A stretch of 37,769 nucleotides of DNA from a virus. This document shows positions 3,965-17,809 of the stretch, one piece after another. The stretch is from IMG/VR virus record IMGVR_UViG_3300045988_104068. One strand, given 5' to 3'. Each line of letters starts with the position of its first letter. Positions within the stretch are counted from its first letter, which is position 1. A program made the translations under genes and the position numbers. The notes beneath the pieces were generated by a model that ran no database searches, was not told the origin of the DNA, and was given only the letters and a program-made list of their open reading frames with translations.

Positions 3965-6477
3965 GCTCCATTCTCCAACAGGTCAAACAGAGTGGGTGCA
4001 TCCTTTTCTGCATCCGCAGATTCCAGATAGCCCACGCCGTCACGGAAATAATCCGGGTTCAGCTCCACGCCCTTGCCTCTGCGGTTCATCTTCACGGCCT
4101 CATACGGCACAGTGAACAGCCCCGCAAAGGGGTCAGCTACCAGCTCGCCCTCGTTGCTGTACCGCTCAATCAGGCGCTGCACGATGTCGATCTGAAGCGG
4201 GCAAACGTGGAGGTTCTGCCGCCGCTGGCTCTGGGTGGTGTTTAGGGTGCGCATCCGGTTGATATCGTCCCAGACGGTCATGTCCCACGAGCCGGGAGCG
4301 ACCACCATGAACGTGGACGGCAAACGGCCATCCTTGTCCAGACTTTCCGCGAGCTTGACGTGTTCCTCGTAGGAGTAGACGCTGTTCCGGCTGAACTTGC
4401 GGTATACGTTTTGCAGCTTGGAGGTCGGGATTTTTTCCAGTTCCTCGCGGGTGAAAGGCCGGTCGCCGCTGCTGCGCCAGAATGCGTGAGCGTCAATTTG
4501 CCACTGGGCGCGGGTGTATTCCTCTTTGGACTTCTTCACCGGCGTATCGGCATATCCACGGCTGCAATCGGTGGGCAGCTTGCGGAATAGCAGGATGTAT
4601 TCTGGGCAGCCAACACCCATCTTCGTGCCGTCCTTGCACTGCTCCGTCCATCCCAGACGGTAGGTCTGGTTATTCTCCCGGACAACGTCCGTGACAACCG
4701 TAATCATTCCGAAATAGGCGAACCCATGCTTCCGGAAATGAGCGATACAGTCCGCGTGAAACGGCTCAATGGTCGGCGCTGCAAGGCCGGTGACGTTGGC
4801 GAACTCCACGCGATCTTTCACATGGATTGCAGCCACGCGACCCGGCTTCAGGGTGCGCAGCAGTTCCGGGGTCAGATAGTCCATCTGACGGAAGAACTCT
4901 GCATCATCCGGGTTATGGCCGAAGTCATTGTACGAGGGCGAATATTCGTAATGGTTGCCGAACGGGATACTAGTCACATACAGGTCAATGCTGTCCGTTG
5001 GCCAGTTCCGGACTTCTTCCACACAGTCGTTGTTGATGGCCGTGTAATTGTTTCCCTTGACTTCCACTCTCTCACATCCTATCGTTCTCTTCAGGGTCTC
5101 AAGCGCAAGGCTACCGAGACCGTATTCTTTGATGATTTCCTCCATCTGCTCGCTCAGTTCATCGTACTGTCTCCACTTGCGTTGCAGCGCCAGCAGCACC
5201 TCCGTCTCCGTGTCCATGTACAGGATGTCGATGATGACCGGGGACTTTTGCAGGAAACGGTAGATGCGGTGAATGGCTTGAATGAAGTCGTTGAACTCGT
5301 AGTCGATGCCCATGAAAATGGCGCGGTGGCAATGGCGCTGGAAATTGCAGCCGGAACCGGACAGGCTTTTCTTGGTTCCGAAGATGCGGGTGCGGCCCTG
5401 TGCGAAGTCCATGACCCGCTGCTCTCTGGTTTCCAGCTCCATGCTGCCGTAGATATCGACCATCTCCGGCACGGCCTTTTTGAGCGCCTTGCGCTCGTCC
5501 TCCAAATCGTGCCAGACCACAAAATGCTCGTCCGGCGGTGCCTCCGCAATGATGCGGGCTACCTCGGCGGCGCGAATATCGATGCTGTCCCTTTTCTCCT
5601 TGGCTGCATCCGACAAGCCCATGGCGGCATCATGGCCGAGCTTCATCTGGCCGTCCGCTTCAAATTCGGCGGGCCGGTCAAGGCTGTTCAGCTTGTGGTA
5701 TCGGATATCCATCGGCGGCAGTGAATAGCCGTCATCCGAGAATCCGAGGTCGCTCGGCTTTTGCAGGAAAAGGCCCCAACTGGCGCACCAGATCCAGAAC
5801 TCGCGCTCGCGGCCAGGATACAAGGTCAGATTGTTGGCCTTGGTGCTGTCCCTCTTGAAAAAGCGGGTCAACGCCTGTCCGGTGTCCATCACTTCCAGAA
5901 AGCCCGCATAGTGAATCAGCTCTTTGAACCGGTTCGGGGCCGGGGTCGCGGTGTTTGTCAGCTTATATTTCACGCCCTTGAACTTGAGCATGAAGCTCTG
6001 GTAGGTCTTGCTGCCGAAGCTGCGCAGCGTTGCAGCCTCGTCCAGACTGACCGCCGTGAAGCGGTGCGGGTCAATATCGCCATCGCGAACCCTCTCGTAG
6101 TTGGTCAGGATGATGGGGGCCGTGCTGGCCTCCACCTCGGCCATGGTCTTGCAGTAGGGCGGTTCTTCCATGCCCAGCAGATTGACCGCATCTGCCCGGA
6201 ACTCCGGCATTACGTTCAGCGGCATCACAATGAGTGTCTGGCCTCCCTCGTGCTTCTGAAGGATTCTGCACCATTCCAGCTGCATGACCGTCTTGCCCAG
6301 ACCGAAGCGGGCAAAGATGCTGCGCCGACCGCCGCGCAGCGCCCACAGGACGCTCACGCGCTGGTGATCTTTCAGCACCGGGTTGACCTCTGCGGGGTCA
6401 ATCTCAATGCCTGACAGGGGCGCAATGTCGATTTTGCGCTCCAAAAATTCTTTGTATGTCACGTTTTCATCTCCCAT
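3961..6477 (-). CDS. SNF2/DEAD-like helicase fused to a beta-class N6A/N4C DNA methyltransferase
   Basis: Starts MGDENVTYKEFLERK. Helicase motifs: FGLGKT (motif I), SLDEAA (motif II), and a C-terminal helicase lobe (GSGCNFQ...IHRIYRFLQ). Methylase motifs follow: motif IV-like VTSIPFG and later motif I-like LVADPFAGLFT. Confidence 0.8.
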   Translation of the reverse strand: MGDENVTYKEFLERKIDIAPLSGIEIDPAEVNPVLKDHQRVSVLWALRGGRRSIFARFGLGKTVMQLEWCRILQKHEGGQTLIVMPLNVMPEFRADAVNLLGMEEPPYCKTMAEVEASTAPIILTNYERVRDGDIDPHRFTAVSLDEAATLRSFGSKTYQSFMLKFKGVKYKLTNTATPAPNRFKELIHYAGFLEVMDTGQALTRFFKRDSTKANNLTLYPGREREFWIWCASWGLFLQKPSDLGFSDDGYSLPPMDIRYHKLNSLDRPAEFEADGQMKLGHDAAMGLSDAAKEKRDSIDIRAAEVARIIAEAPPDEHFVVWHDLEDERKALKKAVPEMVDIYGSMELETREQRVMDFAQGRTRIFGTKKSLSGSGCNFQRHCHRAIFMGIDYEFNDFIQAIHRIYRFLQKSPVIIDILYMDTETEVLLALQRKWRQYDELSEQMEEIIKEYGLGSLALETLKRTIGCERVEVKGNNYTAINNDCVEEVRNWPTDSIDLYVTSIPFGNHYEYSPSYNDFGHNPDDAEFFRQMDYLTPELLRTLKPGRVAAIHVKDRVEFANVTGLAAPTIEPFHADCIAHFRKHGFAYFGMITVVTDVVRENNQTYRLGWTEQCKDGTKMGVGCPEYILLFRKLPTDCSRGYADTPVKKSKEEYTRAQWQIDAHAFWRSSGDRPFTREELEKIPTSKLQNVYRKFSRNSVYSYEEHVKLAESLDKDGRLPSTFMVVAPGSWDMTVWDDINRMRTLNTTQSQRRQNLHVCPLQIDIVQRLIERYSNEGELVADPFAGLFTVPYEAVKMNRRGKGVELNPDYFRDGVGYLESADAEKDAPTLFDLLENGA

Positions 6478-12404: not shown

Positions 12405-12653
12405 TCAGGCGGTCTCCTTGCCAAGACGCTGCTCCTTCTCCTGCTCGCTCAAAAGCTCGCGGGGGTCAACGTTCAGCGTGTCGGCAATGGCCTTGAGCGT
12501 CCGGGGGCTGGTGCCGCCCTTCTTTTTGATGTAGTAGTAGGTGGCCCGCTCAAGGCCAGCAGCCTGCATCAGCTCGGTAACATTTACTCCCCGTAAAATC
12601 ATCAGGGATTCAATTTTTTTCATGCTTACCTTCAAATTATCACCTTCTTTCAC
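12405..12653 (-). CDS. XRE-family HTH protein
   Basis: LRGVNVTELMQAAGLERATYYYIKKKGGTSPRTLKAIADTLNVDPRELL. The start may instead be the ATG at 12623 (MKKIESL). Confidence 0.7.
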   Translation of the reverse strand: MKEGDNLKVSMKKIESLMILRGVNVTELMQAAGLERATYYYIKKKGGTSPRTLKAIADTLNVDPRELLSEQEKEQRLGKETA

Positions 12654-13399
12654 GCTTCCAGCCGCTTTGCCCGGACATTCAGAAACTGGTTCACAAAGTA
12701 AATCTGTCCCTTCCCCGTGACTTTCGGGGTCTTGTTGATGCTGGTGTGGCCGTCCGAGTGCACCACGGTGGTCTCCTTGATCTCAAACAGGCACATTTCC
12801 ACGGCCCGCTGGGTGGGCATATTATAGTCGCTGCGCTTGGGGTCGCGGATCAGATAGCCGTGCTCCCGCATCCAGCTGAACAGCCGGTTCTGCCCGATCT
12901 GCACACCGTTCTGGCACAGCAGTTTTGCCAGCTCACCTACAAGGATGCTCTTCTTGCTGGCGCTTACAGCATCCGCAAAGATGCCCTTCGGGGTCAGCTC
13001 TGCAATCTGAGCGTCCTTGTGTTCCAGCTCGTCGTGGGCGGCAATAAGGGCCTGCGCCATCAGCTCCGCGCGGGAAAGCTGCGGGCGCTGTGCCAGCTGC
13101 TTCTCCATCTGGTTGAAGGCCTCGATGTACTTGAGCTTCCACTGCACGGCTTCCTTGCCGGTAAAGCCCATGGCCAGCAGGGAAAAGCCGTCGCGGTTCA
13201 TCAGGTACATGGTGGCCTTTTTGTTTTGAGCAGTGGTGTACTCGGTCTTGTGGAACATTTTGAGGAGAGCGCAATTTTGCGCCGTCAGATTTTTGATGGA
13301 GCGGAGCACATCTTTATGCTCTTTTCCGAATCGTTCGGCAACGTCCCGGCTGGATGCCACCGGTTCGCCGTTCTGGGTGGATAAGATGATGTCGTTCAT
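12650..13399 (-). CDS. ant: Antirepressor (Rha N-terminal domain + KilAC/ANT C-terminal domain)
   Basis: MNDIILSTQNGEPVASSRDVAERFGKEHKDVLRSIKNL (Rha-like). C-terminal LFSWMREHGYLIR...NMPTQRAVEMCLFEIKE...VTGKGQIYF (KilAC-like). RBS CAAGGAGGT. Confidence 0.8.
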   Translation of the reverse strand: MNDIILSTQNGEPVASSRDVAERFGKEHKDVLRSIKNLTAQNCALLKMFHKTEYTTAQNKKATMYLMNRDGFSLLAMGFTGKEAVQWKLKYIEAFNQMEKQLAQRPQLSRAELMAQALIAAHDELEHKDAQIAELTPKGIFADAVSASKKSILVGELAKLLCQNGVQIGQNRLFSWMREHGYLIRDPKRSDYNMPTQRAVEMCLFEIKETTVVHSDGHTSINKTPKVTGKGQIYFVNQFLNVRAKRLEA

Positions 13400-13416
13400 G
13401 GTGAATATGTACCTCC

Positions 13417-13445
13417 TTGTATTCACTTCACTTTCGCTGTAAAAT
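13417..13445 (+). promoter_or_regulatory. Sigma70-like promoter for 13475..14068
   Basis: TTGTAT-N17-TAAAAT, followed by AAAGGAGGTG. Confidence 0.55.
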
Positions 13446-13474
13446 AAAAAAGAGGAAAGGAGGTGAATGAAAAA

Positions 13475-14068
13475 ATGATTTTTGAAAGTCTTTTAAGCAT
13501 GCATGGTCTGAATATGCAAATTGAGCGAGATGGCGAAATTATTGCAACCGTTCCGGGTTTGCCGAACCGGGAAACAGCAACGAATCGGCAGTACGTTGGG
13601 TTTTGCCCGGGAACCGATATTAAGATAGACGACGTTGTTATCACTCCAGCCAGTGAACGGCTTTATGTCACGGAAACGCAGGCATCGTTCTTCCAGAAGC
13701 AGCAGGAAGAAATAAAAGCGTTCTATATGACCGAAGTCGAGAAAAAGCGGAAAGAAAACGAACAGCGTCAGAGCAATATTTATAACATCGGTACAGCTTA
13801 CGGTTCTGTAATCGGAACAGCCAATACAGCAACCATCAACTATCAGACGAATTTTCAAGAATTGCGTGAAAGAGCGGAAGCTGAAAATGCACCGGACAAA
13901 GAGCAAGTCCAGAAGTTGATTGACCTTGTTGAAATGATCGTAAATGACCAGATTCCTCCGCAAAAGGGTTTGCTATCCAAGTTTTCCGAAACGATGGAAC
14001 GTCACTCATGGATTACAAGCGCGGTTGCATCTGCGCTTGTATCGTGGTTGACACAACTTCCGCACTGA
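13475..14068 (+). CDS. Orphan lysogeny-oriented protein with a C-terminal hydrophobic helix (197 aa)
   Basis: ATG 8 nt after AAAGGAGGTGA. Contains the NIYNIGTAYGSVIGTANTATINY linker and the C-terminal WITSAVASALVSWLTQL. No family recognised. Confidence 0.7.
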   Translation: MIFESLLSMHGLNMQIERDGEIIATVPGLPNRETATNRQYVGFCPGTDIKIDDVVITPASERLYVTETQASFFQKQQEEIKAFYMTEVEKKRKENEQRQSNIYNIGTAYGSVIGTANTATINYQTNFQELRERAEAENAPDKEQVQKLIDLVEMIVNDQIPPQKGLLSKFSETMERHSWITSAVASALVSWLTQLPH

Positions 14069-14252
14069 TTTCGATGGTCAAGTTCAACAATGTTTTTCCA
14101 TTGCTGGATTGAACAAATGAATAGTCTTTAACATTCTGAATAACAGTTCCGTCTATCTGGCAGCTAAAACGGCCGTCCAGCTGTGATAACTGAATCTTTT
14201 GTGCCCAGCGTTCCGGTTCCAGCGGTTCGCTGGGCTTGTTGTTGTTGTCCAT
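14013..14252 (-). CDS. Small hypothetical protein (79 aa), paralog of 17492..17665
   Basis: MDNNNKPSEP... after CAAGGAGGTG. Its 3' end overlaps the convergent plus gene by 56 nt. Confidence 0.6.
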   Translation of the reverse strand: MDNNNKPSEPLEPERWAQKIQLSQLDGRFSCQIDGTVIQNVKDYSFVQSSNGKTLLNLTIEISAEVVSTTIQAQMQPRL

Positions 14253-14265
14253 GTGTTTCACCTCC

Positions 14266-14294
14266 TTGTGTGCACCTCGCTCCTGCGGTAAAAT
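14266..14294 (+). promoter_or_regulatory. Sigma70-like promoter for 14322..14537
   Basis: TTGTGT-N17-TAAAAT, the same geometry and homologous sequence as 13417..13445. Confidence 0.55.
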
Positions 14295-14321
14295 AAGAAA
14301 AACAGGAAGGAGGTGGAAATC

Positions 14322-14537
14322 ATGAGTGATGGAAATAAAATTCGGCACAATCTGGCACTTGCTTATGCAAACAACAAATTGCAGATTGCGTTGCAGCGCG
14401 GTGAGCGTCCGCAGGGTCTTGACTTGAATGACCCTGCACAGGCGGCCTGTGTACTGGCTTCTTGGTACAGCGACTGTCTGGAGCAACTAATCAATCTTGA
14501 GGATAGTAAGATTTATAGTCCCTCCAGCATGGATTAA
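14322..14537 (+). CDS. Orphan lysogeny-oriented small protein (71 aa)
   Basis: ATG after GGAAGGAGGTGG; helical, no family recognised. Confidence 0.6.
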   Translation: MSDGNKIRHNLALAYANNKLQIALQRGERPQGLDLNDPAQAACVLASWYSDCLEQLINLEDSKIYSPSSMD

Positions 14538-14716
14538 ATAATCCGGTCATCGCGCTCAGTTTTTACGGATGCAGAAAGCAGACTAATGATTCGCTCTGCG
14601 TCCGAAAAACTGACATTTTCGCTCTTGAGCTGCTCGAACAGCTTGAGGGCGATTTTCTTTAAGCGCTCGGCGTGTTCGCGGCGCTCTTGGATTTCTTTCT
14701 GGATGTTGTTCTTCAT
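14534..14716 (-). CDS. Small coiled-coil protein (60 aa)
   Basis: MKNNIQKEIQERREHAERLKKIALKLFEQLK... after AAAGGAGGTGAAG. Its stop shares a TTAA tetranucleotide with the convergent plus gene. Confidence 0.55.
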   Translation of the reverse strand: MKNNIQKEIQERREHAERLKKIALKLFEQLKSENVSFSDAERIISLLSASVKTERDDRII

Positions 14717-14811
14717 CTTCTTCACCTCCTTTGGATGGCTGGCAAGTATGTATTTTTCACTATGGATGTGCTATCATAAAGACACCCCAAAACGGAAGGA
14801 GGTGAAAAAAC

Positions 14812-15186
14812 ATGAGCTTGTCATTGACTAAAATGGCTGTTCTTACTGGATATGCAAATACCATTTCCCTCAAAGAATTTGCAAAGAACCGTTTATTTCT
14901 GGTGACACCTGCTGGCATGATCAGCGGTATCCCCGTATTTGATGAGGAAAATAGCAATCCGAACATTGCCGTTGCGCAGACAGTTAACTCCTCAGCTCTC
15001 AAGGCCGTTTCCAAAGCTGCTTCTGCTGAAGAAGAAAGTCCGCAGACGGGTGAAAGCTGTGAGTTTATTCTGCTAAAGGATGCTCGTCTGGAAACCACAA
15101 GTCCCGTTGTGAATTTCCCTGTTCTGACTGTCTTTTGTGACCAGATCATTGCTGTGACCCTTGGCACTGATCTCACCAATGGCTAA
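14812..15186 (+). CDS. Orphan lysogeny-oriented protein (124 aa)
   Basis: ATG after GGAAGGAGGTGAAAAAAC. An extended -10 (TGcTATCAT) lies at 14769..14777. The gene is followed by its own terminator. Confidence 0.7.
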   Translation: MSLSLTKMAVLTGYANTISLKEFAKNRLFLVTPAGMISGIPVFDEENSNPNIAVAQTVNSSALKAVSKAASAEEESPQTGESCEFILLKDARLETTSPVVNFPVLTVFCDQIIAVTLGTDLTNG

Positions 15187-15267
15187 CACCTCGCGATTTT
15201 GCCGCCCTTGTACCGCTAATACAAGGGCGGCAATTTCTTTGGGTTCACCAATGATTTTGATTTTCAT
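15073..15267 (-). CDS. Possible small ORF (64 aa), uncertain
   Basis: ATG 6 nt after GGAGGTG, with a leader homologous to that of 14534..14716. However, it overlaps 14812..15186 by 114 nt and spans the terminator palindrome. Confidence 0.3.
   Translation of the reverse strand: MKIKIIGEPKEIAALVLAVQGRQNREVLAIGEISAKGHSNDLVTKDSQNREIHNGTCGFQTSIL
15201..15241 (+). terminator. Plus-strand intrinsic terminator of 14812..15186
   Basis: Perfect 12-bp stem GCCGCCCTTGTA-ccgctaa-TACAAGGGCGGC followed by AATTTCTTTGGG. There is no U-tract in the minus orientation. Confidence 0.7.
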
Positions 15268-15298
15268 GTTTTTCACCTCCTTTTGGATGAATTAAATA

Positions 15299-15315
15299 AT
15301 CTACTTTAAGTAGAT
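15299..15315. promoter_or_regulatory. Distal operator-like palindrome at the 3' end of cro
   Basis: ATCTACTT-T-AAGTAGAT, perfect 8+8 palindrome overlapping the cro stop codon. It has the same half-site as the three sites in the cI/cro intergenic region. Confidence 0.6.
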
Positions 15316-15512
15316 GCACTGGCGAAAAAAATTTGGTCGATGGGAATGCCGACGACCTCACTGATTCTTTTCGCGGTGGCGACGGTAGCGTCTTCGGGCG
15401 ATTGCTCGATTTTGCGGTATGTATCGCGCGAAATTCCGAGCTTTTCTGCCATTTCACGCTGTGTGAAACCGGCGTACTGGCGGGCTTGTTTAACGGTGAA
15501 TCCCAAGTTCAC
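15306..15512 (-). CDS. cro: Cro-like XRE HTH repressor
   Basis: VKQARQYAGFTQREMAEKLGISRDTYRKIEQ. Divergent from cI. The likely true start is TTG at 15506, 7 nt after AGGAGG. Confidence 0.8.
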   Translation of the reverse strand: MNLGFTVKQARQYAGFTQREMAEKLGISRDTYRKIEQSPEDATVATAKRISEVVGIPIDQIFFASAST

Positions 15513-15538: not shown

Positions 15539-15567
15539 ACTATACTCCACTTTTAGTAGAATGTCAA
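15539..15567 (-). promoter_or_regulatory. Early lytic promoter (PR-like)
   Basis: Minus strand TTGACA-N17-TATAGT. The spacer contains the operator CTACTAAAAGTGG. Confidence 0.7.
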
Positions 15568-15623
15568 GAACTTAAAGTAGAAAATTTTAAAATAAATGTT
15601 GACATAGCTCTACTTTTGGTGTA
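15545..15623. promoter_or_regulatory. Three operator-like sites between cro and cI
   Basis: CCACTTTTAGTAG (15547..15559), ACTTAAAGTAG (15570..15580) and CTACTTTTGGTG (15610..15621), all variants of CTACTTwAAGTAG. Confidence 0.6.
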
Positions 15624-15627: not shown

Positions 15628-15649
15628 CTACATATAAGGAGTGATTCAA

Positions 15650-16279
15650 TTGAGCATCGCTGAAAATATTAAAAAAATCCGATTGGAACACGAGCTATCA
15701 CAGGCTGACCTTGGCAAGATTGCAGGTGTCAGCGACAAAGCGGTGTCCACTTGGGAACTCGGGATAAAAATACCTCGCATGGGCGCAGTGGAGAAAATGG
15801 CAAATTACTTTGGTATCCCCAAAAGTGCAATTTTGGATGATGCCCAGCCCGCTCCTGCATCCCGTCCCATCCCCCCGGGCTTTGAGCCGATGCCGAAGAT
15901 GAAGAAGATCCCGCTGATCGGAGCCATTGCCTGCGGGGAACCCATCACGGCAGAGCAGAACATTGAAAAAATGGTGGACGTGCCGGAGAACATCCGGTGC
16001 GATTTTTCCCTGACCTGCCACGGTGACAGCATGGTGGATGCCGGCATTCACGATAAAGACGTGGTGTATATCCGCATCCAGCCGGAGGTGGAGAACGGCG
16101 AGATCGCAGCGGTGCGCATTGATGGTGAAGCCACCCTCAAGCGGGTATATTACAACCCCGGCACGCTGACCCTGATGCCCGCAAACCCGGCTTATGCGCC
16201 CATGATCTACACCGGCCCCCAGCTGGAGGAGGTGCACATTGAGGGCAAGGCCGTAGGCTGGACACACTGGGTGGGGTAA
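15650..16279 (+). CDS. cI: CI-type repressor (XRE HTH + S24 LexA-like autopeptidase)
   Basis: N-terminal HTH IRLEHELSQADLGKIAGVSDKAVSTWE. C-terminal S24 motifs: IACGEP cleavage-site region, GDSM (Ser) and ATLKR (Lys). TTG start 7 nt after AAGGAG; the track start at 15641 abuts the RBS. Confidence 0.85.
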   Translation: MSIAENIKKIRLEHELSQADLGKIAGVSDKAVSTWELGIKIPRMGAVEKMANYFGIPKSAILDDAQPAPASRPIPPGFEPMPKMKKIPLIGAIACGEPITAEQNIEKMVDVPENIRCDFSLTCHGDSMVDAGIHDKDVVYIRIQPEVENGEIAAVRIDGEATLKRVYYNPGTLTLMPANPAYAPMIYTGPQLEEVHIEGKAVGWTHWVG

Positions 16280-16329: not shown

Positions 16330-17133
16330 ATGAAGAAAACTATGAAAAAGACCGCTGCAGCACTGTGCATTGCCGCAACGCTTGTATCTGTGGCAGCGCC
16401 GGCAATGGCTGTCAGCCCAGCAGAATATATGAGCACAGCCGCTCTTGAAGAATGCAATACTGCGACGGTAGCGCAGGTGGAAAGCCTGATCAACCAAATC
16501 GGAACCGTCACGACTGCCCGCCGCCCGGCAATTGTGGCTGCCGTGAATGCCTATAATGAATTGGACGATGCAAGCAAGGCGCAGGTCAGTAACTTTGCGG
16601 TGTTGGCAGAAGCCCAGCAGGTGCTGGGACTGAAAGACGCTCTTGCAAAGCTGAAAATCAGTTACGATAAGGTCGAGGACGCAAGAAGCTATGTGTCACC
16701 CACGGAAGACCGACTGAGCAATCAAGGCAAAAGCTATATACTGCCCTTCTTTGTAAATGGCAGCACCAATGATCCGTCAATGTTTTTCATGGTTCTGTGT
16801 AGCGGCAACAAATATGTGTACTTGGACACGATCACGATTCGCGCAGGCGAGTATAAATACACCTACACGATCGATTGGACGGATGTGGATCGTGGCTATG
16901 ATGGAAAGCAGTATTGGGAACTGACCTCCTTTGTAGGCGATGATGAAGATATCCAGTGGTTTAAGAATATTTTGAGCGCTGATGAAATCATTATCCGATA
17001 CAGCGGCGATGGTGGCAGCATCGACCACACAGTCTCCCCCGAAGAGCGTCAGGCAATTACGGATGTCTTGAACGCATATGATCTGTTCAAGGCAGCAAGC
17101 CCGACTGTACGCGCAAAGGCTTTGAATAACTGA
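16330..17133 (+). CDS. Secreted protein of unknown function (lysogenic-conversion candidate)
   Basis: Signal peptide MKKTMKKTAAALCIAATLVSVAAPAMA. Downstream of cI on the same strand; RBS AAGGAG. Confidence 0.7.
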   Translation: MKKTMKKTAAALCIAATLVSVAAPAMAVSPAEYMSTAALEECNTATVAQVESLINQIGTVTTARRPAIVAAVNAYNELDDASKAQVSNFAVLAEAQQVLGLKDALAKLKISYDKVEDARSYVSPTEDRLSNQGKSYILPFFVNGSTNDPSMFFMVLCSGNKYVYLDTITIRAGEYKYTYTIDWTDVDRGYDGKQYWELTSFVGDDEDIQWFKNILSADEIIIRYSGDGGSIDHTVSPEERQAITDVLNAYDLFKAASPTVRAKALNN

Positions 17134-17198: not shown

Positions 17199-17495
17199 AT
17201 GACAAAAGATACCGAAAAGGTCTTGCTGAAACTTTATCGTGCATACACGGAGCGCCGCAAAACCTTGCCGAAGTCTCAGGCAAAATATTTTGCATCAGAA
17301 GATGTGTCGGCTGCATTGCCGGGGATCCCGTGGGATGACGTGAGAGAGGCGCTTGCGGAACTGCGTGATGATGGCTATATCGACCTTTACATGATGGGTG
17401 CCTGCGATCTGTTTCCGAAGGCTATCGAGTACGGCGAAACGGCTGTCGAACGCGGCATTGACAAGGCGCTGGATGTGTGGAGTAAACTCCATTAA
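17199..17495 (+). CDS. Small winged-helix-like protein (YjcQ-like, tentative)
   Basis: 98 aa, ...VREALAELRDDGYIDLYMMG...AIEYGE. Family assignment is by loose pattern only. Confidence 0.6.
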   Translation: MTKDTEKVLLKLYRAYTERRKTLPKSQAKYFASEDVSAALPGIPWDDVREALAELRDDGYIDLYMMGACDLFPKAIEYGETAVERGIDKALDVWSKLH

Positions 17496-17665
17496 CCGAG
17501 TTTCAGTTTGTCCACCGAAATGTTCAGCGTCATATCTGCGAGGGGATGGCCCGCATCGCACTGGATGGAGAAGCCTTTGACGCGATGGACTTCAACACCG
17601 TTCAACTTCATTTTGAAGTCTTTTTCGTAAAGATAAAGTTCGACGGCATTCTGACGCTCTGACAT
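17492..17665 (-). CDS. Small hypothetical protein (57 aa), paralog of 14013..14252
   Basis: MSERQNAVELYLYEKDFKMKLNGVEVHRVKGFSIQCDAGHPLADMTLNISVDKLKLG. ATG after GAAAGGTG. Its stop shares TTAA with the convergent gene. Confidence 0.6.
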   Translation of the reverse strand: MSERQNAVELYLYEKDFKMKLNGVEVHRVKGFSIQCDAGHPLADMTLNISVDKLKLG

Positions 17666-17713
17666 GATAGCACCTTTCTTTCTGTGTATGAATGAAAAGA
17701 TTCGTTCACGTTC

Positions 17714-17755
17714 ATTATACATCAAAATTATGCTAAAGTATAGCATAATTTTGAT
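17714..17755 (-). promoter_or_regulatory. Promoter (-10 TATAAT) abutted by a perfect 15-bp inverted repeat (operator)
   Basis: ATCAAAATTATGCTA-aagta-TAGCATAATTTTGAT at 17721..17755. The minus-strand TATAAT lies at 17714..17719. Confidence 0.6.
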
Positions 17756-17763
17756 TTGCACAA

Positions 17764-17809
17764 ACAAATAAAAAAACCTCCCCCAGTGTTACCAGCACCG
17801 AAGGAGGTT
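17764..17809 (-). terminator. Minus-strand intrinsic terminator
   Basis: AACCTCC-N21-GGAGGTT followed by TTTTTTTATTTG on the minus strand. Confidence 0.65.

Follow-up and report, generated by a model that had tools for sequence, protein, structure and literature searches.

Candidate moron-type gene units nested antisense in the early operon of a Faecalibacterium-type temperate phage

In the Staphylococcus aureus phage 80alpha, genes in antisense orientation lie within the cI and cro operons; RNA sequencing (RNA-seq) shows their reciprocal switching, and it is through antisense nesting that their expression follows the phage state, lysogenic or lytic (PMC11087260). The small gene ith-1 of this phage is antisense to the defence gene tha-1 and overlaps its 3' end over 64 nt; the ith-1 product inhibits Tha and prevents autoimmunity upon induction. 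Within the lytic operon, orf11 and orf17/19 are antisense as well and switch at induction (PMC11087260). Such arrangements are referred to as noncontiguous operons (PMC11034616, PMC7154746). The locus compared here belongs to the IMG/VR virus record IMGVR_UViG_3300045988_104068, analysed over its whole length of 37,769 nt («the window»). It is the 1.9-kb interval separating the cro-like gene from the antirepressor gene (ant), in which three plus-strand genes (p197, p71 and p124) alternate with three small minus-strand genes (m79, m60 and m64).

The best explanation, with a probability of about 0.6, is that this interval consists of three independent units of the moron type, arranged head-to-tail on the cI strand and nested antisense in the early operon transcribed from PR, i.e., a noncontiguous operon. 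Morons, as reportedly described by Juhala and Hendrix in 2000 for lambdoid phages, are autonomous promoter-gene-terminator units inserted between phage genes. To our knowledge, the coupling of expression to the phage state by antisense nesting has so far been demonstrated experimentally in S. aureus only.

The window is the genome of a temperate siphophage of the Faecalibacterium type (about 37.8 kb). Its nearest named relatives are the Faecalibacterium phages Aster and FP_Lugh, with patchy nucleotide similarity (70-83%). The minus strand bears nearly all genes, except for the plus-strand lysogeny module, i.e., cI, a secreted 267-aa protein, p98 and the integrase. The early operon reads cro, m64, m60, m79 and ant, after which come over 20 other minus-strand genes; p124, p71 and p197 are interposed on the plus strand, and ant is the first early gene downstream of the three stacked units. 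Opposite-strand genes are thus nested between the genes of one operon, which is one mark of a noncontiguous operon or excludon. An earlier, sequence-only reading of the window had described six open reading frames (ORFs) on alternating strands between ant and cro, plus genes oriented as cI, and 3' overlaps of 56, 4 and 114 nt by the minus genes; all these points are confirmed. The strong GGAGGTG ribosome-binding site (RBS) claimed for each plus gene is also found, 6-9 nt ahead of the ATG, and AAGGAGGTG-type sites with ideal spacing are present at all six ORFs. The region is indeed AT-rich: its GC content is 0.44-0.47 over 13.5-15.5 kb vs. roughly 0.5-0.66 elsewhere in the genome.

Selection was estimated on about 130 related loci gathered from IMG/VR, GenBank phages, metagenome assemblies and GTDB genomes. 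The ratio of nonsynonymous to synonymous substitution rates (dN/dS) was obtained by Nei-Gojobori counts on unique variants, with shifted-frame controls. This ratio is 0.086 for p197 (controls: 2.0-2.2), 0.24 for m79 outside the overlap (0.9-1.6), 0.16 for p71 (1.4-1.8), 0.31 for m60 (1.2-1.8) and about 0.2 for p124, its m64-overlapped part included. Because purifying selection is frame-specific, these five ORFs are bona fide genes. The cassette formed by p197 and m79 is represented by 33 distinct variants, with identity down to 77%, zero indels and both ORFs always intact. In their 56-nt overlap the p197 frame is constrained (0.16) and the 18-codon tail of m79 is not (8.2). For m64, the value is 0.52 in the 27 non-overlapping codons (controls: 0.9-1.2) and 0.97 inside the p124 overlap. 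Its conservation is confined to the N-terminal 25 residues or so (MKIxIxGxPKEIAALVLAVQxRQ), which in relatives bear differing tails and give proteins of 44-52 aa. Thus m64 has a genuine start, and its C-terminal extension, antisense to p124, is largely accidental.

The sequence-only reading had recognised one terminator, at 15201..15241. Its T-tract is on the plus strand only, as had been stated (the hairpin is placed here at 15199-15233), but it is not the sole one: there are three plus-strand elements made of a hairpin and a T-tract (T1 to T3, Table 1). A terminator scan of 13400-15300, from cro to ant, found no terminator-like site on the minus strand. As far as the sequence can tell, each plus gene carries a predicted promoter, an RBS, a coding sequence and a factor-independent terminator of its own (a trait of morons), the latter lying within the first part of the convergent early coding sequence. 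Read on the opposite strand, the T-tracts are Lys/Asn codons close to the N-terminus of the partner protein.

The three hairpins are conserved in different ways. For T1, RNAalifold on 17 variants gives 10 pairs, two of them covarying, with a covariation score above all 500 shuffles; 98% of the cells are paired vs. 32-56% in slid controls, and many pairs are G.U pairs, valid on the plus strand alone. For T2, the free energy (dG) is -21.9 on the plus strand vs. -15.2 on the minus strand, since G.U pairs become C.A mismatches on the latter. T2 is polymorphic at 1/34 positions vs. 61/146 in the remaining part of m60 (p = 4e-6). Synonymous sites are frozen too: only one of the 11 third positions varies inside the hairpin vs. 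30 of 49 outside. T3 has a dG of -28 kcal/mol (z -5.7) and is polymorphic at 3/35 positions vs. 197/421 elsewhere (p = 4e-6). In other words, T2 and T3 are near-invariant in nucleotides while the surrounding cassettes diverge by 15-25%. The T3 hairpin, together with the m64 N-terminus, recurs behind unrelated plus genes in Aster and in two other loci (L002 and L004).

The promoters proposed for the plus genes exist as sequence elements, two with N17 spacing (13417-13445 and 14266-14294) and one as an extended -10 (14769-14777). Junctions 1 and 2, which contain both N17 promoters, are paralogous (78% identity over 41 nt). Extended -10 or -35/-10 elements are also found upstream of the plus genes in distant homologues, and diverged p124 homologues have the extended -10 at the same place. 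The PR-like promoter of cro (TTGACA-17-TATAGT, 15567-15539) scores 11/12. Operator-like sites of the CTACTTTAAGTAG type are present at 15301-15313 and, as two imperfect copies, in the cI-cro intergenic region (15547-15559 and 15568-15580). No cI/Cro operator-like site was found at the plus-gene promoters, the CTACTTTAAGTAG-type sites being limited to 15301, 15547 and 15568. In sequence terms, the plus genes are autonomously equipped (predicted promoter, RBS and terminator). The palindrome at 15301-15313 may serve as a third, distal operator, where it would work as a roadblock or a loop anchor.

When the proteins of the window are compared with all loci (tblastn), the ORFs move strictly as convergent pairs, i.e., p197+m79, p71+m60 and p124+m64; m60 and p71 occur together in 27 loci. 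In more than 100 related loci, these pairs combine differently between ant and cro (1 alone, 1+3, 2+3, 2 alone, etc.). Since the three units assort independently, the view that they form one defence cassette is rejected. The alignment of the window with loci devoid of pair 2 places the breakpoint in the start-codon/RBS motif CAT-N4-5-TTCACCTCCTT, which is common to all minus genes. The units are exchanged among Faecalibacterium phages as modules of a plus gene with its convergent minus gene, probably by recombination at this motif. Such breakpoints largely explain, in a mechanical way, why the genes of close relatives are linked tail-to-tail. Beside unrelated genes, the junction piece 14204-14315 is met again with about 91% identity, including in loci without p197; junction 3 is invariably linked to p124 (96-99% identity).

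The reuse of junctions leads unrelated small proteins to share N-terminal peptides such as MDNNKKPSEP... More generally, terminators written in N-terminal codons account for the N-termini MDNNKKPSEP... and that of m64 being common to unrelated small phage proteins. The peptide MDNNKKPSEP... is the reverse complement of a plus-strand hairpin and T-tract and is part of the reused junction module. It begins unrelated small minus genes in three loci (L002, 2991-3137 and 3758-4051; L004, 5168-5377; L001, 3685-3834), often with a transmembrane helix at the end.

In relatives, many other plus-strand genes fill the same slot, most of them with a C- or N-terminal transmembrane helix. In the related prophage L121 (1221-2048 and 3751-4743), an Abi_alpha gene (PADLOC candidate system PDC-S47, 1e-47) is found in this slot, adjoining a p124 homologue; this locus also has an Abi_2 gene right after cI.

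Table 1. Features of the interval between the antirepressor gene and cI (positions in the window)
Feature	Position	Strand	Description
ant, antirepressor (Rha + KilAC domains)	12650..13399	-	Pfam Phage_pRha 1e-29, ANT 8e-34
Junction 1	13400..13474	+	ant RBS (minus strand); predicted p197 promoter: -35 TTGTAT 13417-13422, -10 TAAAAT 13440-13445; RBS GGAGGTG 13459-13465
p197, 197 aa	13475..14068	+	N-terminal beta-barrel (residues 1-98), conserved FNIGTAYGSVIGT motif, helical C-module = phrog_21028
m79, 79 aa, small beta-rich early gene	14013..14252	-	Conserved convergent partner of p197-family genes
T1, predicted p197 terminator	14203..14248	+	Hairpin 14203-14235, then CTTGTTGTTGTTG; inside m79 codons 2-17
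Junction 2	14253..14321	+	m79 RBS; predicted p71 promoter: -35 TTGTGT 14266-14271, -10 TAAAAT 14289-14294; RBS 14309-14315
p71, 71 aa	14322..14537	+	Family restricted to Faecalibacterium
m60, 60 aa, small helical early gene	14534..14716	-	p71 companion in every case
T2, predicted p71 terminator	14619..14661	+	Hairpin 14619-14652, then TTTTCTTTA; inside m60 codons 19-33
Junction 3	14717..14811	+	m60 RBS; predicted p124 promoter: extended -10 TGcTATCAT 14769-14777; RBS 14798-14804
p124, 124 aa	14812..15186	+	phrog_3773
m64, 64 aa	15073..15267	-	Conserved N-terminus only; tail antisense to p124
T3, predicted p124 terminator	15199..15243	+	14-bp hairpin 15199-15233, then TTTCTTTGGG; inside m64 codons 9-23
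Operator-like perfect palindrome CTACTTTAAGTAG	15301..15313	.	Between cro and m64, overlapping the cro stop codon
cro-like helix-turn-helix gene, first of the early operon	15306..15512	-	Pfam HTH_3 4e-12
cI-like repressor (HTH_3 + Peptidase_S24)	15641..16279	+	Pfam 8e-27 and 8e-11

From the genes, promoter and terminator elements, modularity and conserved synteny that are observed, we infer the following timing of expression and interference. A sigma-A-type promoter, located in a short junction shared with the RBS and start codon of the opposite-strand early gene, would drive each plus gene. In the lysogen, cI would repress PR, and p197, p71 and p124 would be transcribed from their own operator-free promoters and stop at T1-T3; these transcripts would also be antisense RNA to most of m79, m60 and m64. 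Upon induction, transcription from PR, which should meet no terminator on its strand, would run head-on through the three units and damp them, and the same transcript would express m64, m60, m79 and then ant. The geometry on which the sequence-only reading insisted holds: PR read-through would have to cross all three plus genes in antisense.

The comparison with 80alpha leads to several likenesses. In both cases genes with their own promoter (here predicted) run against a phage operon, the transcript of which overlaps them (here, would overlap them), and antisense genes are found inside the cro operon (80alpha gp11, and gp19, which is DUF4393). In both, a small gene converges on a larger one and overlaps its 3' end (56, 4 and 114 nt vs. 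64 nt for ith-1/tha-1), and expression would here also be tied to lysogeny vs. lysis. The differences are: (i) three tandem units are stacked directly behind cro; (ii) it is the larger, candidate-effector genes that are nested antisense, under predicted promoters of their own, and the small genes would depend on PR, which is the reverse of tha/ith; (iii) the terminators are embedded in the partner coding sequences; (iv) the proteins are unrelated. No similarity to 80alpha Tha-1, Ith-1, gp10 or gp11 was found by BLASTP, and none of the six products matches HEPN or any other Pfam or PADLOC entry, while membership in the Tha group is defined by a HEPN-domain RNase effector. As the proteins are unrelated, the likeness to Tha/Ith is architectural and not one of family: the layout is already known from other prophages.

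As in the morons of lambdoid phages, the units have their own (here predicted) promoter and a factor-independent terminator, they are present or absent between conserved neighbours in relatives, their base composition is atypical, and their expression is expected from a repressed prophage. They differ from these morons in that the unit is co-mobilised with a convergent early gene, its borders are the start/RBS motifs of early genes and its terminator lies in a coding sequence. A third comparison is with the abortive infection (Abi) and superinfection exclusion (Sie) genes located near the immunity region of prophages (Abi_alpha/PDC-S47, Abi_2). The same slot and orientation are seen in L121, and many slot genes of relatives encode tail-anchored membrane proteins; however, none of the six products matches these families and the C-terminal helix of p197 is unconvincing as a membrane anchor. 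Indeed, the membrane-acting Abi/Sie layout that had been suggested for p197 is not established because this helix is weakly hydrophobic (Kyte-Doolittle 0.96, the usual threshold for a membrane helix being 1.6). For the same reason, p197 as a tail-anchored membrane protein was rejected as unsupported.

The plus genes had been considered as orphans. This does not stand, since p197 matches phrog_21028 and p124 matches phrog_3773. An exhaustive profile search gives 577 representative clusters for the p197 family at E < 1e-3 (286 at E < 1e-10), in phages of Clostridia; host genomes include Lachnospiraceae, Roseburia, Lawsonibacter, Peptococcaceae and Desulfosporosinus. The conserved part of the family is the C-terminal region of about 100 residues (FNIxNAxGSVIGT, helices, then SWIT..WL), i.e., phrog_21028 or «C-module», which matches residues 89-189 of p197 (E 1e-16) and the full length of the relative P0173 (2e-25). 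The N-domains vary: beta-barrel in p197, YjcQ-like, resembling a winged helix, in P0173, XRE helix-turn-helix (HTH) in P0226, helical in P0243 and P0246. It must be noticed that P0226 (locus L115, 176-829), with its XRE-type HTH_3 N-domain, is followed by an HTH gene on the same strand and may be a repressor-like variant. No paralogue of p197 was found in the window.

The AlphaFold2 (AF2) model of p197 has a mean confidence (pLDDT) of 75.8, with about 90 for the barrel (1-98) and moderate values for helices 127-194. Among the best Foldseek matches of the N-domain, in the PDB as in BFVD, nearly all are phage neck proteins, e.g., Chi neck, Douge connector, T1 stopper, SPP1 connector and entries named «head-tail joining» or «stopper». 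The likeness to the SPP1 gp16-type stopper is that of a small beta-barrel, and it is weak (E 4e-4 to 1e-2, TM-score about 0.5); p197 differs by its fusion to an unrelated C-module and by its location in the immunity region and not in the structural module. Comparison with the connector proteins of the same phage (hhalign) shows no relation. An assignment of p197 as a connector-module gene of the gp16 type (single domain of about 110 aa) was rejected on its length (197 aa), its location and its additional C-module.

Homologues of p197 with 41-56% identity are found in very different phages, i.e., with serine-recombinase integrases, RecT/YqaJ modules and other cro/cI genes. Even distant ones keep the position: on the cI strand, directly behind cro and 3'-overlapped over 20-56 nt by a minus gene of 56-92 aa. 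This partner is homologous to m79 (core xINGxxIxxVxDYKIxSSxxGxTELxLxI; pairwise E 2e-10 to 2e-3) and is retained despite the N-domain swap in P0173. The p197+m79 pairing is old and widely conserved, far older than the breakpoint-driven linkage. The pairing is not obligate: some C-module genes are without partner or are antisense elsewhere, e.g., beside terminase, and m79-like domains occur away from C-module genes.

Several points weigh against lysogen-expressed moron-type units with a defence role. At the level of the elements, the T-tracts of T1 and T3 are interrupted, and both N17 promoters match the consensus only moderately (8/12), for which reason the automatic promoter scan did not list them. 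At the level of the proteins, searches of Pfam, PADLOC and NCBIfam place none of the six products in a family of defence, exclusion or toxin proteins (0 PADLOC families), and PHROG gives only families of unknown function; the Abi/Sie likeness first suggested finds no support there. The HTH or winged-HTH-like N-domains on some C-module relatives could mean that these are regulators and not defence proteins. For a small beta-barrel such as the p197 N-domain, the stopper-like fold scores are weak (best E 4e-4, TM-score about 0.5 on the target). Independently of these points, profile searches in the PDB with the p197, p124 and m79-family alignments gave nothing below E = 1, and Rfam gave no credible RNA family over 12.5-18 kb. 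A type I toxin-antitoxin system was rejected, as both partners are protein-coding and under selection, no small peptide is strongly hydrophobic and Rfam has no match.

On balance, the plus products are most likely accessory proteins, expressed in the lysogen and acting on other phages or on the host. The architecture fits such genes with an antisense shut-off, for which there is experimental precedent elsewhere, and a defence role with shut-off by antisense or by an inhibitor, by analogy with Tha/Ith, is plausible. The observations of the sequence-only reading are largely right and its interpretation is partly supported.

Among other explanations, one of rather low probability is that each pair is a cognate defence/anti-defence system: the plus gene would encode an effector of the lysogen and the small early gene an inhibitor made from PR, sparing the phage its own lytic cycle, as an equivalent of Tha/Ith. 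In the case of p197, the stopper-like N-domain would sense or mimic neck proteins of virions and the C-module would be the effector. The convergent 3'-overlap geometry is that of tha-1/ith-1 (64 nt), and the p197 and m79 families stay paired at 41-56% p197 identity, even when the N-domain is swapped; however, the physical overlap by itself already enforces co-inheritance, several C-module genes have no m79-like neighbour and m79-like domains are also found away from C-module genes. Variable N-domains on a constant C-module, and the matching of the N-domain almost only to head-to-tail joining proteins, also speak for this reading. On the other hand, the sequences do not resemble Tha/Ith, and neither HEPN nor another effector domain is recognised in them. 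A contig of Lawsonibacter asaccharolyticus, in which the p197 homologue is truncated and the m79-like gene intact, is in favour of cognate pairs; there (L133, 2501-3115), the homologue is cut to 57 codons and the m79-like gene is convergent to it. As for the third pair, m64 has a tail free of constraint, and its conserved N-terminus is found behind unrelated plus genes, which makes m64 an unlikely specific antagonist of p124. This explanation is thus attractive for p197+m79 and unlikely for p124+m64.

By analogy, p197 and m79 are the best candidates for an effector with a lytic-phase antagonist in the Tha/Ith manner. A more extended proposal is that they represent a widespread, so far undescribed two-gene switch system of temperate phages of Clostridia: a lysogen protein with a swappable sensor or decoy N-domain (here stopper-shaped) and a constant C-module blocking superinfection, neutralised on induction by the convergent small protein encoded behind cro. 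We regard this proposal as doubtful. If it were true, the pair would do the work of Tha/Ith without a HEPN domain, its control of autoimmunity being hard-wired by 3' overlap and antisense transcription.

It has also to be considered that the units might mainly insulate the switch. Constitutive convergent transcription and 3' antisense would then suppress leaky transcription from PR into m64, m60, m79 and especially ant and so stabilise lysogeny, the proteins being secondary or regulators. All three units do lie between PR/cro and ant, with plus transcripts antisense to most of each small early gene, and the p197 family comes immediately after cro in many phages; yet C-module genes are also found far from the switch, e.g., beside terminase, and the combinations of units vary in otherwise similar phages, so that the switch can do without any one of them. 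In favour of insulation, the hairpins show more conservation than coding requires, some C-module relatives have HTH_3 or YjcQ-like N-domains, and antisense interference contributes in 80alpha (PMC11087260). Against this, the three plus proteins are under strong purifying selection (dN/dS 0.09-0.2) and must therefore matter in themselves. Given protein-level selection and presence/absence variation, insulation as the main function is disfavoured and looks improbable.

Finally, although the m64 and m79 tails within the overlaps evolve without protein-level constraint, an annotation artefact (chance frames alternating in an AT-rich spacer of which a single strand is coding) is essentially refuted by frame-specific purifying selection on 5/6 ORFs, by perfect RBS/ATG spacing at all six, by ORFs that remain intact in variants of 77-99% identity and by homologues in hundreds of contigs.

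If moron-type units nested in the PR operon are confirmed, the antisense nesting of accessory or defence genes in a lytic operon would be extended to abundant phages of human-gut Clostridia. The compact hotspot formed by cro, a small gene facing a backward gene, and ant is then a place in which new anti-phage or host-modulating genes may be sought. The literature on Faecalibacterium prophages, Aster included, yielded nothing on the cro-ant region. The most valuable leads are (i) the conserved pair of p197-family and m79-family genes that Clostridia phages carry at their switch, where the C-module family, with its 577 representative clusters, and the m79-like partner are a concrete effector/antagonist candidate; (ii) the terminators embedded in partner coding sequences, which would be a case of genome economy, i.e., intrinsic terminators inside the N-terminal codons of an opposite-strand gene.

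p71 is restricted to Faecalibacterium, every homologue being at least 55% identical. p124 has homologues in Ruminococcus-type prophages, where they are antisense right behind an m64-like gene and keep the T3 hairpin; its AF2 model is poor (pLDDT 46) and unusable for a fold search. In two loci (L118 and L123, about 4370-4610), the cro position at the head of the lytic operon is taken by an m64-like gene, and an HTH cro gene is not called there.

Outside the interval, p98 (phrog_750; 17199-17495, plus strand) and m58 (17492-17767, minus strand) lie just upstream of the integrase, where they converge and overlap by 4 nt; m58 is in the position where «xis» would be annotated. The topology of this further pair is that of tha-1/ith-1 of 80alpha, and in related loci the one gene always occurs with the other; neither is similar in sequence to Tha/Ith or m79. 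The assignment of m58 to the m79 family is unsupported by sequence comparison, and that of p98 to the YjcQ-like N-domain of P0173 was dropped in the absence of a BLASTP match. Between cI and the integrase, the 267-aa protein (16330-17133, plus strand) has a signal peptide and no family match; it is 98-100% conserved in many related prophages and occupies the classical slot of superinfection-exclusion or lysogenic-conversion genes. As for the antirepressor (12650-13399), many related phages share only its Rha N-terminus (residues 1-103/111), the KilAC half being swapped, which indicates mosaicism at the level of domains.

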